The notes beneath the pieces are model-generated. The model was not told the origin of the DNA, did not search any database, and saw nothing but the letters and a program-made list of their open reading frames with translations. From NCBI GenBank assembly GCA_019241535.1, contig JAFAWX010000145.1, forward strand, positions 1-57,731: DNA of 57,731 nucleotides, in the 5' to 3' direction. Source of the stretch: Acidobacteriota bacterium (lineage in GTDB: Bacteria; Acidobacteriota; Terriglobia; Terriglobales; Acidobacteriaceae). The first letter of the stretch is position 1. Each line of letters opens with the position of its first letter. Below, piece after piece: positions 4,606 through 41,890 of the stretch. Position numbers and translations under genes: made by a program.

Positions 4606-4818
4606 AAAGTTTAGACTTCAACTGCCTGAACCGCAGTTGCTCTCTGGCGCTCAGAAAATCCCTGTAATTCCGTCCAAATTGTTACCAATGTGCGGTGGCA
4701 ACGAACCTTCCGACGGTTGCGGCGAGTGCTCTCGGAATCTTGTTATCCGGCACAGTGCCGGGTGTAAAATCGCGTGGTAGCAAGCTTCACGGGACCTTCT
4801 CCCGCATCCGAGGCAGGC

Positions 4819-5862
4819 ATGAACGTGCACATCAGCTACAAACTCCCGCGTACCCCCGACATCGATAAGGAAATCTTGCATTGGACGGCTAAAGTTGAAA
4901 ACCGCCTGCAGGTGTTCCGTCCTGAATTAATTCATTTGAAGGGTTTGGTGGAGCAGAACTCTGCCCGCGAAGGTACCACCGTATCGCTGAACCTGCGGCT
5001 CCCCTCGGGGCAGATGGCCGCCCAGGAGTCGGCCGCGGTGCCTACGGCAGCGCTCAAGGCAGCCTTTGACGATCTGCTCGGTCAGATCAGCCGGCATAAA
5101 GAGCTGCTGCGCAACTCTCATCGCTGGCGCGGGCGGCGCGCTCAGGAGGGCCGCCGTCCGGCGGAAGTTCCCTTTGAGCAGACCCTGGCCGCGCTTCCGT
5201 CCTCGACCGCCACGGCCGACGATATTCGCTCTTACGTGAACGCGAATTTCCGCCGTCTGCGGCTTTTCGTCGAGCGCGAGCTTTATTTTCGCGAGAGCGC
5301 CGGACAGCTTGCGCCGGACTGTCTCAGCGTCGAAGAAGTCGTAGATGAGGCGGTGGCGCGCGCCCTCGAAGAGAAGGTGGAAAAACCGGAGCGCATCGGC
5401 CTCGAGCCCTGGCTCTATCGGCTGGCGATCGCTGCCCTCGAGGATTTTACCGCCCGCTGGCCGGAGGGCGAATCGGACGTCAACCTGCAGGGCTTGAGAC
5501 GGCGGCGGAACGAGCGGGCAAGCGATGAGCCGCGCATGCAGTTCCACCAGCCCGACGAAGCCATGACCACCGAGAGCGGTATAGCCGACCGGCGGACGGC
5601 GACGCCTGAAGAAATCGCCTATACGGACGAAATTATCACCCTGGTGCAATTCGCCTTGCGTGGGGCCTCGCGCGAGGACCGCGAAGTTTTCATCCTGCAC
5701 GCGCTTGAAGGCTTCTCTCTAGAAGAAATCAGCGTTATCACCGACCGTAATCCCGACGAAGTGCGCCGCGCCATCGCCCGCGCGCGGGAAAAGCTGCGCC
5801 AGAGTCTGCGGGCGACGAACCGGTCGAATCTCAAGCTGCTCGAGGAAACCGGAACTCGTTGA
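4819..5862 (+). CDS. Fusion protein: N-terminal HPF/RaiA-like (ribosome hibernation factor) domain plus ECF-type sigma-70 regions 2 and 4
   Basis: MNVHISYKLP...VSLNLRLPSGQMAAQESAAVPTAALKAAFDDLLGQISRHKELL follows the HPF pattern. EPWLYRLAIAALED is region-2-like. REVFILHALEGFSLEEISVITDRNPDEVRRAIARAREKL is a region 4 HTH. The ATG at 4819 is preferred over the track start at 4774. Confidence 0.7.
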   Translation: MNVHISYKLPRTPDIDKEILHWTAKVENRLQVFRPELIHLKGLVEQNSAREGTTVSLNLRLPSGQMAAQESAAVPTAALKAAFDDLLGQISRHKELLRNSHRWRGRRAQEGRRPAEVPFEQTLAALPSSTATADDIRSYVNANFRRLRLFVERELYFRESAGQLAPDCLSVEEVVDEAVARALEEKVEKPERIGLEPWLYRLAIAALEDFTARWPEGESDVNLQGLRRRRNERASDEPRMQFHQPDEAMTTESGIADRRTATPEEIAYTDEIITLVQFALRGASREDREVFILHALEGFSLEEISVITDRNPDEVRRAIARAREKLRQSLRATNRSNLKLLEETGTR

Positions 5863-5877
5863 CGGTGAGGTGCATTG

Positions 5878-7050
5878 ATGATCACTCGTGAAGAGCTGCG
5901 TCAACTTGCGGATTTTGAATGCCGCCTTCCCGGCGAACTTGCCGTCACCTTCTACTTTCACCCCCCACGGCCCAAGGACAAATCCCATCGCGAAGAAGCC
6001 ATCCAGGCGAAAGAGCTGGTGCGCAAGAAACTCCAGGAACTCGATGCCGCGGCTCGCAATCGCGAGCTGGTTGCCGATCTCGAGCACATTCTGCGGCTCG
6101 CCGAAGGTTTGCACGGCAATCAGGCGCGCGCCAAGGCGGTCTTTGCCTGCCGTGGCCGCAAGCTGTGGCGGGAATTTGACCTGCCGCCGGGATTGTGGGA
6201 CACCACCCTCTCGGTCAATCGGCGCTTTCATCTGAAGCCTCTGGCTCCCATCTTTTCCCAGCATCCCCGCCTGTGGGTGGTCGTTCTCGACCGCCACCAT
6301 GCCCGCTTCCTCGATATAGATTTCGATCGTGTCGTCGAGGTCGGCGCGCTCTCAAATCCGGCTCCGCGGCACGGGCGCAGCGACGGATACGCCGGATATG
6401 ACGGCGGTCACGCCCAGCGCCACTCGGACGATGAAGTGCGGCGGCATTTCCATGCGGTTGCTGAGTTCCTCAAAAACGCCAGTGGACGGCGGCAGTTCGA
6501 AGCCCTGGTGATCGGATGCCATGACGTGAATTGGCCCGAGGTTGAAAAGCAGCTTCACCCCGACATGCAGAAAAAAATTCTCGGGCGCTTCTCCGGCGAG
6601 TTCGCCGCCTTCACCAACGAGCGAGCGGCAAGCGAGGCGGCACGGGTTCTGCGGGACTCTATCGACGAGCACCACCGCTCGCTCTTGTCGGAGACCCTCG
6701 ACCAAGCCCGCAGCAACGGACGCGGTGTGACCGGACTGCGCCGGGTGCTGCGCGCCACCGAACAGGGCGAGGTCGAGACCATCATCATGGCCCAGGAGTT
6801 TTCCGCCCGCGCCGTCGAATGCATGAACTGCCGCCACGTCGATGCCCACCTTGTCCCCTATTGCCCGGTATGCGGACGGGCGACGCGGGAGCTCGACGAT
6901 GTCTGCGAAGCTCTGGTGCCGATAACCGTGCGCAACAATATCGGGCTGGTGCTGGTTGCTCGCGACGAAGTTTTGGATCGCGTGGGGAATATTGCCGCGC
7001 TGCTGCGCTTCCGCGCCGACCAGAACAAGAACCTGCGCGCGGTCTCCTGA
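5878..7050 (+). CDS. Bacterial eRF1/Pelota-like protein (baeRF-type release-factor homologue) with CxxC...CxxC zinc ribbon
   Basis: The loop RHGRSDGYAGYDGGHAQR resembles the eRF1 HGRGGQS loop. C-terminal part reads VLRATEQGEVETIIM...CMNCRHVDAHLVPYCPVCG...NIGLVLV. GGTGAGG Shine-Dalgarno lies 7 nt before the ATG at 5878. Confidence 0.6.
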   Translation: MITREELRQLADFECRLPGELAVTFYFHPPRPKDKSHREEAIQAKELVRKKLQELDAAARNRELVADLEHILRLAEGLHGNQARAKAVFACRGRKLWREFDLPPGLWDTTLSVNRRFHLKPLAPIFSQHPRLWVVVLDRHHARFLDIDFDRVVEVGALSNPAPRHGRSDGYAGYDGGHAQRHSDDEVRRHFHAVAEFLKNASGRRQFEALVIGCHDVNWPEVEKQLHPDMQKKILGRFSGEFAAFTNERAASEAARVLRDSIDEHHRSLLSETLDQARSNGRGVTGLRRVLRATEQGEVETIIMAQEFSARAVECMNCRHVDAHLVPYCPVCGRATRELDDVCEALVPITVRNNIGLVLVARDEVLDRVGNIAALLRFRADQNKNLRAVS

Positions 7051-40298: not shown

Positions 40299-41030
40299 TT
40301 AAGCTGCGCTGCCGAAGAGCTCGGAGGCGGCGGCCATGCCGGGCGCGCAGCGGGCGGCAATTTCCGAGCGCCACGAACGCGCGTTGGCCTTGGCATTCCT
40401 CCGCAGTCGAAGGTAAGCCTGAGGACGAAGGGCGGCGGCTTCCGCCTGGCTGTTCTCTCTTCCCAGTAATTCCCGGATACGCAGTTTGGCTTTATGCAGC
40501 TGCGACTTCGAATTTCCCACCGAGCAATCGAGCAGTTCGGCGATTTCCTGATGCTCGTATCCTTCGACTTCGTGCAGCAGGAATATCGTCCGATAGCCGT
40601 CGGGAAGTTCGCGGATCGCGCGCGCCAGGGCAATGCGGTCCACCGAACCCGCAAGCCGGTCGTCGCGGCTGCCGTACTCCCGGCGCACCGTTTTGGCGTC
40701 CTGATTGTAAGGCTCGTCAAGAGAGATCTGCCGCAGCGCTTTCTTGCGAAAGTGCATCAGGACCGTATTCACCGCGATTCGATAGAGCCACGTGGACAAT
40801 GCCGAGTCACCGCGGAATGTCGCGAGCTTACGGAAAACTTGCAGGAATGCATCCTGAGTCAGGTCTTCTGCTTCTGCGGTATTGTTGGTCATGCGCAGGC
40901 AAACCGAATAAATCCGGGCTTTGTGCTGGTGGAATAAAGAAGCGAACGCATCTGCATCCCCCTGCTGCGCTCGCCTTACTAGATCAAGATCGGAATCAAA
41001 CCGTACGGTGGGAACGGTGTCGGTGGTCAC
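40299..41030 (-). CDS. ECF-type RNA polymerase sigma-70 factor with ~55-aa C-terminal extension
   Basis: DLTQDAFLQVFRKL, WLYRIAVNTVLMHFRKK (region 2), GYRTIFLLHEVEGYEHQEIAELLDCSVGNSKSQLHKAKLRIRELL (region 4). Confidence 0.85.
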   Translation of the reverse strand: MTTDTVPTVRFDSDLDLVRRAQQGDADAFASLFHQHKARIYSVCLRMTNNTAEAEDLTQDAFLQVFRKLATFRGDSALSTWLYRIAVNTVLMHFRKKALRQISLDEPYNQDAKTVRREYGSRDDRLAGSVDRIALARAIRELPDGYRTIFLLHEVEGYEHQEIAELLDCSVGNSKSQLHKAKLRIRELLGRENSQAEAAALRPQAYLRLRRNAKANARSWRSEIAARCAPGMAAASELFGSAA

Positions 41031-41890
41031 TAGGCTCTCCTTTCAAAGGTGCGGGTCAGTAGGACATCCAACGAAATGGTTCTTGGTGCGATCACATGTT
41101 GAGCGTAGATTCATTGTCAGAAATGGTCTATCCGGTGAGGTCTGTATGCACCAAGAGACTTTGCTGTACCGTGTTGATGCGCAAAGACCTAGGGGCAAAA
41201 GGGAGATTGCGCACAATGCATAATCTTGCAGTTCAGCTCCTCTAGAGATCAGATCGCTGAAAACCACGACATCTCAGGTTTTTCCCGATGTCCTTCTGTG
41301 TCATGTCCTTCTGAGTCCCCTGGTGGGCCCGTGCGGCGGCCTCGAGTACCATTTTTTGGCTTCGCTGCTCTGTTTATTTTTATGGGGTACATAATTTTTA
41401 TTTATGGGCGCAAGCACCAGGCGGTCGCCCGAGGCGGGGCCGCCATGGAAAGTCCGGGCCGGCTCTGTCGTCCGCACCTAGGAGACAAACAGCAGACACT
41501 GTCGTAACCGAGCGCGGAGTGGCGCTGCACACGTGCAAATCTTTGCACACCTTTCTACCCTTTGTTTTCCGGCGACCGAGCTCAGGGCGGGGAATTTTTC
41601 CGCTACAGAAATTCCGCAGAGAAAGTACAGACTCAGCAGGATTGTTCATCTCCGGCCGACGACCTACTCTCTGCGTCATGCAAGGTTGCCCTCAATTTTC
41701 CCTCCTCTCGAGCAGGGGCCGGCAGCCGTAGGGCGCCGGCACCTGCTTCTCGCCTCTCGCCTGTTCTGGATTCCTGGCAACAGCTGGACAGGATGCACTC
41801 GCGTAATTGAGCTTTCGAAACTGATGCGTGTGCCGCTTCGGCGTGGCATCCAAAGGGGGGAAATTCCAACCCAACTTTTGGGAGGCAGTC

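Follow-up and report, generated by a model that had tools for sequence, protein, structure and literature searches.

A gene fusing an HPF/RaiA-like domain to an ECF-type sigma factor, and its Balon-like neighbour, in a soil acidobacterium: a possible ribosome hibernation operon

We analysed a stretch of 57,731 nucleotides of DNA from a soil acidobacterium, hereafter the window, which carries on its forward strand, at 4819-7050, a module of two genes. Gene 1 extends from an ATG at 4819 to a TGA at 5860-5862 and encodes a protein of 347 amino acids, in which an HPF/RaiA-like domain is followed by an ECF-type sigma factor. A GAGG Shine-Dalgarno sequence (4810-4813) is located 6 nucleotides upstream of this ATG, which we prefer over an in-frame upstream GTG at 4774 because all homologs begin with MNVH. 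Gene 2 extends from an ATG at 5878 to a TGA at 7048-7050 and encodes a Balon-like protein of 390 amino acids. A preliminary description of the window had placed the two open reading frames at 4819-5862 and 5878-7050, with a gap of 15 nucleotides and the sequence GGTGAGG before gene 2, and we found them exactly so. It had also read gene 1 as an HPF/RaiA-like domain joined to ECF sigma regions 2 and 4, which AlphaFold2, Foldseek, profile searches and TIGR02937 confirmed, and gene 2 as an eRF1-like protein with a zinc ribbon, for which it expected a baeRF-type profile; this profile was found as well. The features of the module are the following.

4819-5124, forward strand: HPF/RaiA-like domain of gene 1, residues 1-102, with the order beta-alpha-beta-beta-beta-alpha (AlphaFold2, Foldseek, profile search)
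5125-5220, forward strand: Arg-rich linker of gene 1 (WRGRRAQEGRR...VPFEQT), residues 103-134, basic and modelled with low confidence
5221-5463, forward strand: divergent ECF sigma region 2 of gene 1, residues 135-215 (TIGR02937, profile, Foldseek)
5464-5613, forward strand: acidic linker between sigma regions 2 and 4, residues 216-265, with the motif ASDEP..[LM]QFHQPDE (Q241-E247 at 5539-5559)
5614-5814, forward strand: sigma region 4 of gene 1, a helix-turn-helix, residues 266-332 (Pfam Sigma70_r4_2; profile against the PDB)
5863-5877, forward strand: intergenic gap of 15 nucleotides
5864-5870, forward strand: Shine-Dalgarno sequence GGTGAGG of gene 2, inside the gap, read directly from the sequence
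5878-7050, forward strand: gene 2, a Balon-like three-domain protein of the aeRF1 superfamily, baeRF family 10 (Pfam PF18854, profile, AlphaFold2, Foldseek)
6367-6423, forward strand: strongly conserved loop of gene 2 at the eRF1 GGQ position, without GGQ, residues 164-182 (RHGRSDGYAGYDGGHAQRH; HMMER alignment)
6820-6873, forward strand: zinc ribbon CxxC-N10-CxxC of gene 2, residues 315-332, inserted in the C-terminal domain

The gene 1 protein was modelled with AlphaFold2 on 27 homologs, and the model was compared with the PDB by Foldseek. The HPF domain was predicted with a pLDDT of about 85-90 as a strand at residues 2-7, a helix at 13-29, strands at 39-46, 53-61 and 64-72, and a helix at 75-102. 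Its target-normalised TM scores to E. coli and Vibrio HPF, to T. thermophilus protein Y and to the Psychrobacter RaiA of the Balon complex were 0.80-0.86. A profile of the domain matched 23 HPF/RaiA/pY chains of the PDB (E 2e-6 to about 0.1) and showed no other significant match. Divergent members of the fusion family exceeded the gathering score of Pfam Ribosomal_S30AE (PF02482, 23.7 bits) over the whole model, with 24-39 bits. Considering these members together with the 23 PDB chains, the homology of the domain in the window to HPF holds by transitivity. The basic C-terminal helix is also retained, and its segment GQISRHKELLR aligns with RQLTKHKDKLKQ of E. coli HPF (QLTKHKDKLKQ), the family pattern being QLxKHKxK/L. 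Residues Q89, H93, K94, L97 and R98 are invariant in the alignment of 27 close homologs, and the domain is the most conserved part of the gene 1 protein in close and distant comparisons.

On the one hand, the domain shares with the short HPF, RaiA (YfiA) and pY proteins their fold and the QLxKHKxxL helix, which lies against the 16S rRNA in solved complexes. On the other hand, it carries the SLNLRLPSGQ signature of a divergent subfamily under the Pfam threshold, and it is followed by a sigma factor instead of the short tail or the dimerisation domain of short and long HPFs. This subfamily is small, with 247 clusters at the 50%-identity level among 1.84 billion representative proteins at E <=1e-3; most are fusions of 328-387 amino acids, and some are standalone proteins of about 117-155 amino acids at the weak end. 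From its fold, its profile matches, its basic helix and its constraint, the HPF domain looks functional. The Arg-rich linker that follows has a pLDDT below 50 at residues 102-118, and close homologs conserve its W103, R106, P118 and E120. Metagenome loci (L098-L125) encode standalone HPF-like proteins of about 117 amino acids, which share the LNLxLPTG and QLxKHK signatures of the fusion domain and may be its unfused ancestor or paralog. Near these proteins, a split version, with an HPF-like gene beside a separate sigma gene, was sought and not found, and a baeRF neighbour was also absent there.

The remainder of gene 1 matched TIGR02937, the NCBIfam sigma70-ECF model, with 48.7 bits over residues 140-330 (cutoff 42.9), and Pfam Sigma70_r4_2 with 39.9 bits (E 3e-10, cutoff 25.7). 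The best PDB matches of a profile of the sigma part were E. coli sigmaE (E 3.9e-15), AlgU (E 1.3e-13) and mycobacterial SigH and SigE, with PhyR following later (E 1e-10), and Foldseek and profile searches together matched sigmaE, AlgU, SigH and SigL. Region 2 is recognisable by profile and structure only; it aligns to sigmaE residues 48-92, with the helix WLYRLA opposite WLYRIA. Both this helix and the helix-turn-helix of region 4 are conserved among homologs. In the acidic linker between regions 2 and 4, residues A234-E237 and Q241-E247 are invariant in the 27 close homologs (RRRRNERASDEP..QFHQPDE), and the confidence of the model is low there. The linker core persists as YQPDE or YQHDD down to 28% identity, the lower end of a wider alignment of 31 fusion-family members, and in orf11 of a transmissible heat-resistance island described below. 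Such conservation appears unusual for the linker of an ECF sigma factor. In ECF holoenzyme structures, the sigma2-sigma4 linker threads through the polymerase cleft, and the conservation is accordingly compatible with polymerase binding. We consider that the sigma part is a divergent but complete ECF module, with regions 2 and 4, and it looks functional.

We also considered a mimic of the kind of PhyR, the anti-anti-sigma factor of the alphaproteobacterial general stress response, on whose sigma-like model region 4 of gene 1 also scores. This candidate was set aside: the receiver domain of PhyR is absent, the gene 1 protein ends 15 residues past region 4, and true ECF sigma factors score higher. 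Among ECF sigma factors, the main text of the ECF reclassification paper describes fused extensions at the C-terminus (ECF41 and ECF42) and at the N-terminus (SigC and BldN), which resemble gene 1 in having an extra domain and no adjacent anti-sigma gene; unlike the HPF domain, the N-terminal extensions given there are short and none is reported as ribosome-binding (PMC7826278). The same main text makes no mention of a ribosome-related extension or of an HPF-sigma architecture (PMC7826278).

Gene 2 belongs to baeRF family 10, with 70.1 bits (E 3e-19) against a Pfam cutoff of 27.1 for PF18854, and its top NCBIfam models are two families of Balon-type hibernation factors. A profile of 26 homologs had as its best PDB match the M. 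smegmatis Balon Msmeg1130 (E 3.9e-6, residues 6-304), with Pelota and eRF1 ranking lower. The AlphaFold2 model (pLDDT 79, pTM 0.70) gave the same answer in Foldseek, where ribosome-bound Msmeg1130 (8v9j_z and 8v9l_z) was the top match over the full length (E 1e-20, TM 0.69-0.76, 390 columns). The next matches were 8rd8_B, 8rdv_B and 8v9k_z, and P. urativorans Balon and Rv2629 matched at TM 0.61-0.67, whereas aRF1/eRF1 reached TM values of 0.25-0.47 only. Gene 2 thus shares with Balon (P. urativorans AOC03_06830, Msmeg1130 and M. tuberculosis Rv2629) the same three domains, and likewise neither a GGQ nor an NIKS string is present in its protein. The sequence identity is about 18%, Pfam assigns the protein to baeRF family 10, and its NCBIfam scores, given below, make it a distant relative of Balon and not an equivalog.

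The loop at the GGQ position is the part of gene 2 that bears on catalysis. HMMER sets the G-G-Q of eRF1 on D169-G170-Y171, and residue 171 is Y, F or H across the 26 homologs. Q180, located 9 residues past the GGQ-equivalent position, is Glu in 9 of the 26; the Gln that marks the catalytic loop of family 10 (PMC6514570) has no fixed counterpart in gene 2, since this sole nearby Gln is Q/E-variable. The alignment therefore argues against the peptidyl-hydrolase activity considered for family 10, and a catalytic release factor was rejected as our main reading of the gene. The loop, RHGRSDGYAGYDxGHx[Q/E]RH, has a pLDDT below 50 at residues 164-174 and may be the counterpart of the lasso loop of Balon; at positions that could correspond to the HP motif and the lasso loop of Balon there are a conserved KSHRE loop and the RHGRSDGYAGYD loop. 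The four cysteines of the zinc ribbon (C315, C318, C329 and C332) are invariant in the 26 homologs, and the ribbon fills the insertion site of the C-terminal domain where Balon has a beta-hairpin. From the alignment and the model, the gene 2 protein is best described as a Balon-type hibernation factor and not as a rescue or release factor. Accordingly, where the preliminary description had spoken of a stress or rescue system, the rescue part finds little support.

Scanning one genome per species, we found the fusion in at least 573 species-level genomes. Adjacency was counted in the best 80 of these at least 573 loci, all of which come from Terriglobales or from metagenome-assembled genomes of Acidobacteriota; one locus ends too soon for its neighbour to be judged, leaving 79 that are informative. 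In the Terriglobales, where identity to gene 1 is 56-81%, a baeRF gene is adjacent on the same strand in 74 of the 79 loci, with gaps of 14-102 nucleotides. In a second subclade, with 36-45% identity, a baeRF family 10 gene lies directly downstream in all four proteins that were looked up, and the flanks differ: a CofH-like radical SAM or AIRC gene upstream, and a HAD hydrolase, OMP beta-barrel, peptidase S9 or asparaginase gene downstream. Since the pair is kept there despite changed flanks, operon-level coupling is indicated rather than inherited synteny. As with many Balon genes, gene 2 adjoins coding sequence for an HPF-family protein and a sigma factor, and here both partners are one polypeptide.

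The region upstream of gene 1 contains further conserved elements.

4734-4742, forward strand: AATTT(T)G element (window copy GGAATCTTG), semi-conserved, about 20 nucleotides upstream of the -10-like box, from an anchored alignment of 74 upstream regions
4760-4771, forward strand: promoter-like box GGGTGTAAAATC, with GGGTGTAGAAT as the operon's own candidate promoter, 58 nucleotides before the ATG, with a -10-like TA[G/A]AAT after GGGTG
4790-4804, forward strand: hairpin CGGGA-N5-TCCCG in the 5' untranslated region, just upstream of the GAGG Shine-Dalgarno sequence, conserved in position across loci

The box GGGTGTA[GA]AAT(C) is nearly invariant 54-71 nucleotides before the ATG, and GGTGTA is present in 74 of 78 upstream regions. 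In 880 kb, comprising the window and the homologous loci, there are 60 exact copies of GGGTGTA[GA]AAT against 0.8 expected, and every copy lies upstream of gene 1; because the box occurs only there, no regulon can be derived from it. The second subclade keeps the box (AGGTGTAAAAT), and a third subclade replaces it by an ordinary-looking TTGC(T/G)T-N17-ATACTA. The spacing between the AATTT(T)G element and the box matches neither that of canonical sigma-70 promoters nor that of ECF promoters, and a standard promoter scan of the region upstream of gene 1 found no promoter. No terminator-like site was found in the 15-nucleotide gap between the two genes, and no conventional anti-sigma gene stands beside gene 1 in the window or in the four second-subclade loci looked up. 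In some species both sides of the hairpin at 4790-4804 are changed (for example CGAGA/TCTCG and GGGGA/TCCCC), and RNAalifold supports just 3 of its pairs, which is weak evidence. A structured RNA leader upstream of gene 1 was considered and rejected, as there was no Rfam match and RNAalifold backed only the 3-bp hairpin.

The fusion family extends beyond the acidobacteria. A tblastn search of plasmids with gene 1 of the window gave no match, and the most divergent family member, P0388, alone bridged to proteobacterial plasmid relatives. Full-length relatives were found on plasmid pOANT01 of Brucella anthropi and in Burkholderia, Sphingobium, Methylorubrum and others. The Brucella anthropi relative exceeds the Pfam thresholds of Ribosomal_S30AE and Sigma70_r4, and those of Burkholderia and Sphingobium stay under the thresholds in their matches to the S30AE and sigma region 4 models. 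The plasmid loci of Burkholderia, Sphingobium and Brucella anthropi (L130, L131 and L132) encode Hsp20 in three copies, GroES/EL, DnaK, FtsH, a ClpK-like AAA ATPase, HdeD and YfdX1/2. A homolog of 381 amino acids is orf11 of the transmissible heat-resistance island (tLST/LHR), located between hdeD-GI and trx-GI in E. coli, Klebsiella and Enterobacter.

L133:6575-7720, plasmid NZ_CP010179.1: E. coli orf11, at the orf11 position of tLST

Pfam found no match in E. coli orf11, where the sigma signatures have decayed below detection. When the family alignment was compared with it by hhalign, the probability was 98.9% (E 1.6e-17) over 325 collinear columns. Gene 1, tLST orf11 and the plasmid relatives thus share, full-length and collinear, the HPF-like domain, sigma region 2, the YQ(P/H)D(E/D) motif and sigma region 4. 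The relatives sit in stress islands; they differ from gene 1 in an identity below 30% and in having HdeD, Trx, YfdX, ClpK, FtsH, Hsp20 and chaperonins as neighbours, not baeRF. This collinearity suggests that orf11 may have a ribosome- or transcription-related role. Previously, orf11 was listed without an assigned function, and a sigma-24-like regulator was named a hallmark of the archetypal tLST island (PMC8290217); deletion of orf11 caused no change in one oxidation assay (PMC8407380). Several of the proteobacterial plasmid homologs are annotated as sigma-28 or FliA.

The combination of these gene families has precedents. The baeRF families had been described by comparative genomics, as the preliminary description noted: Burroughs and Aravind (2019) reported a recurrent baeRF-HPF neighbourhood across phyla and proposed non-catalytic A-site blockers that work with HPF (PMC6514570). 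In the work of Helena-Bueno et al. (2024), Balon, which is non-catalytic, was shown to occupy one ribosome at the same time as RaiA, and its mycobacterial homologs were shown to inhibit translation; raiA is the most frequent neighbour of Balon genes, which also occur beside genes of alternative sigma-70 factors (PMC10901736). The main text of a preprint of November 2025 describes HPF isoforms fused to Csp, SigE or CBS that coexist with canonical HPF, HPF-SigE chimeras that are frequently adjacent to Balon genes, and a SigE-HPF fusion on plasmid pEc78 (bioRxiv 10.1101/2025.11.04.686544). In these chimeras a SigE-like part replaces the C-terminal domain of long HPF, a description that gene 1 of the window fits; the main text reads the fusion as the repair of a truncated HPF and not as sigma coupling, and it contains neither Acidobacteria nor an experiment on an HPF-SigE chimera (10.1101/2025.11.04.686544). 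Since baeRF-HPF, Balon-RaiA/sigma and HPF-SigE-Balon neighbourhoods have all been published, the pair in the window belongs to a class already noted by comparative genomics.

We tentatively read the two genes as one stress operon, encoding a two-factor ribosome hibernation module of RaiA-plus-Balon-like type with a tethered sigma factor, and we give this reading a little less than an even chance. The preliminary description had likewise suggested that the unit may couple the state of ribosomes to transcription or park a sigma factor on ribosomes. The folds and homologies, the operon layout and the conservation of the pair are direct results; ribosome binding by both proteins, polymerase binding by the sigma part, and any coupling with its direction are inferred from them. 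During hibernation, the gene 2 protein would, as Balon does and probably with EF-Tu, enter the A site when ribosomes are idle or stalled, and would contact the decoding and peptidyl-transferase centres; the peptide would not be released, because GGQ is absent. The HPF domain of gene 1 would bind the decoding site and mRNA-tRNA channel of the 30S subunit, as RaiA does beside Balon in Psychrobacter ribosomes. A complete ECF-type sigma factor, with regions 2 and 4 and the acidic linker, would thereby be covalently tethered at the ribosome through the HPF domain, and because of this tether the pool of free sigma would depend on the number of vacant ribosomes. In this case, the ribosome could act as a sequestering anti-sigma factor, with sigma stored in dormancy and set free upon reactivation of the ribosomes, or once the factor is more abundant than vacant ribosomes. 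That the ribosome itself is the anti-sigma factor, holding the ECF sigma inactive beside the Balon-like protein and releasing it to RNA polymerase, is a speculative step that we regard as rather unlikely. In a more extreme variant, the Balon-like protein, encoded at the usual position of an anti-sigma gene, would alternate between the sigma part and the A site of the ribosome as its partners.

Several results weigh against a hibernation operon with a tethered sigma factor. Two of the three profiles that the preliminary description had expected for gene 1 were not obtained: Sigma70_r4_2 was matched, but the HPF domain of the window scored 21.1 bits on Ribosomal_S30AE, under the gathering score, so that an HPF call on this score alone would be unsafe, and Sigma70_r2 had no match at E up to 1, where the control E. 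coli RpoE reached 66 bits. Region 4 also scored 24.7 bits on the PhyR_sigma-like model (PF22233), and homologs reached up to 42. With Sigma70_r2 undetected, and with a region 4 score on the PhyR model that is nearly as good, a non-transcriptional mimic is conceivable for the sigma part. Autoregulation is not supported, because the conserved upstream box is not a typical ECF promoter; a motif of the GGAAC-N16-CGT type was sought upstream of gene 1, and the invariant GGGTGTA[GA]AAT box was found instead. Gene 2 fails the equivalog cutoffs of the Balon-type NCBIfam models, with 54.6 against 330 bits for the AOC03_06830 family and 44.6 against 320 for the Rv2629 family, and it keeps a Cys4 zinc ribbon that is absent from Balon. 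Nor is the pairing universal, and the conserved adjacency on which the preliminary description had made its reading depend held in the Terriglobales and the second subclade only. Five Terriglobales loci are without adjacency, and in two of them (L060:5001-7394 and L061:5001-7416) the asparaginase-like gene, which in the window lies downstream of gene 2, directly abuts gene 1; the Balon-like gene seems to have been cleanly lost or moved there, while the gene order around it was preserved. In the third subclade (L081-L096, high-GC metagenome loci, 30-36% identity), no baeRF gene occurs within 4 kb and the fusion gene is followed by a gene for a secreted lytic transglycosylase with SLT and LysM domains, and no baeRF neighbour is annotated for the proteobacterial plasmid relatives (<30% identity), where HdeD or chaperones follow. 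Therefore, universal co-conservation of the pair was rejected, and gene 1 and gene 2 are not obligate partners; their link is strong but lineage-specific. Finally, the literature yielded no experimental study of an HPF-sigma fusion protein, in line with the preliminary description, which knew of no characterised system of this composition; the composition itself has already been recorded computationally (PMC6514570; PMC10901736; 10.1101/2025.11.04.686544).

Some of these results would be expected if gene 1 were purely a hibernation chimera, a non-canonical HPF working with a Balon-like factor, in which a sigma fold without a role in transcription stands in for the C-terminal dimerisation domain of long HPF and serves as a module for protein or ribosome contact. 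The preprint's main text reads HPF-SigE, HPF-Csp and HPF-CBS in this way, as replacing the lost C-terminal domain (10.1101/2025.11.04.686544), and the missing Sigma70_r2 match, PhyR sigma-like scores near threshold and above it in some homologs, and the decayed sigma signatures of tLST orf11 agree with it. However, both sigma regions and the linker between them are complete and constrained, the best profile match is a true ECF sigma factor (E 4e-15) ahead of PhyR (E 1e-10), the WLYRLA helix matches WLYRIA of sigmaE, and TIGR02937 is passed, so we consider this explanation rather improbable, though a real contender. Conversely, the HPF fold may have been exapted, without ribosome binding, as an N-terminal anti-sigma-like extension of an ECF sigma factor, with gene 2 being independent or a regulatory partner. 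The main text of the reclassification paper describes ECF sigma factors that carry a fused regulatory extension and lack an anti-sigma factor (PMC7826278), and the HPF subfamily is divergent, with its 247 clusters; gene 2 could be a partner of the sigma factor because it lies immediately downstream, where anti-sigma genes usually lie. The basic helix motif is nevertheless kept in what is the most conserved part of gene 1, standalone proteins of about 117 amino acids of the same HPF subfamily exist, and the gene 2 protein, with all three domains in a Balon-like shape that suits the A site, contains no anti-sigma fold, which leaves exaptation with a small probability.

A slightly smaller probability is given to synteny alone, that is, to adjacency inherited within one bacterial order between genes of independent function. 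The wider neighbourhood, with a CofH-like radical SAM gene upstream and an Asparaginase_2 gene downstream, is common to many loci, and the pairing is missing in other branches of the fusion family, both points in favour of synteny alone. The short same-strand gap (14-102 nucleotides) with its Shine-Dalgarno sequence and no terminator, the persistence of the pair where the flanks changed, and the recurrence of baeRF/Balon-HPF linkage across unrelated phyla (PMC6514570; PMC10901736) speak against it. Least probable, and in our view very doubtful, is a rescue module in which gene 2 encodes a catalytically active release or rescue factor that frees stalled ribosomes, with gene 1 in a reporting or regulatory role. 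Burroughs and Aravind point to family 10 in particular as keeping a conserved Gln that possibly supports peptidyl hydrolase activity (PMC6514570), and Q180 lies close to the GGQ-equivalent position; but that position reads D-G-Y/F/H, Q180 is replaced by Glu in 9 of the 26 homologs, NIKS is missing, and in structure the protein is most similar to Balon, a non-catalytic factor (PMC10901736).

If the sigma part is active, the fusion would link ribosome occupancy to promoter selection within one polypeptide, and bacteria would thereby have a new means of tying gene expression to dormancy and wake-up. If, in addition, the ribosome serves as the anti-sigma factor, gene 1 would act as a direct protein switch through which transcription is informed of the condition of the translation machinery. 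The family is large and reaches orf11 of a transmissible island of heat and chlorine resistance in E. coli, Klebsiella and Enterobacter. The pair of the Terriglobales offers a compact test setting, with two genes and one conserved promoter box, and the homology of orf11 offers a genetically tractable host. Balon, RaiA, their co-binding, the linkage of their genes and HPF-SigE chimeras beside Balon genes are already published. New here are the Balon-like assignment of gene 2 with the loss of its catalytic motif, the lineage-specific pairing, the conserved linker motif, the promoter box and the homology to tLST orf11.

Elsewhere in the window, an open reading frame on the reverse strand (40299-41042) also matches the profile of the sigma part (E 3e-11), and it is probably an ordinary ECF sigma factor.

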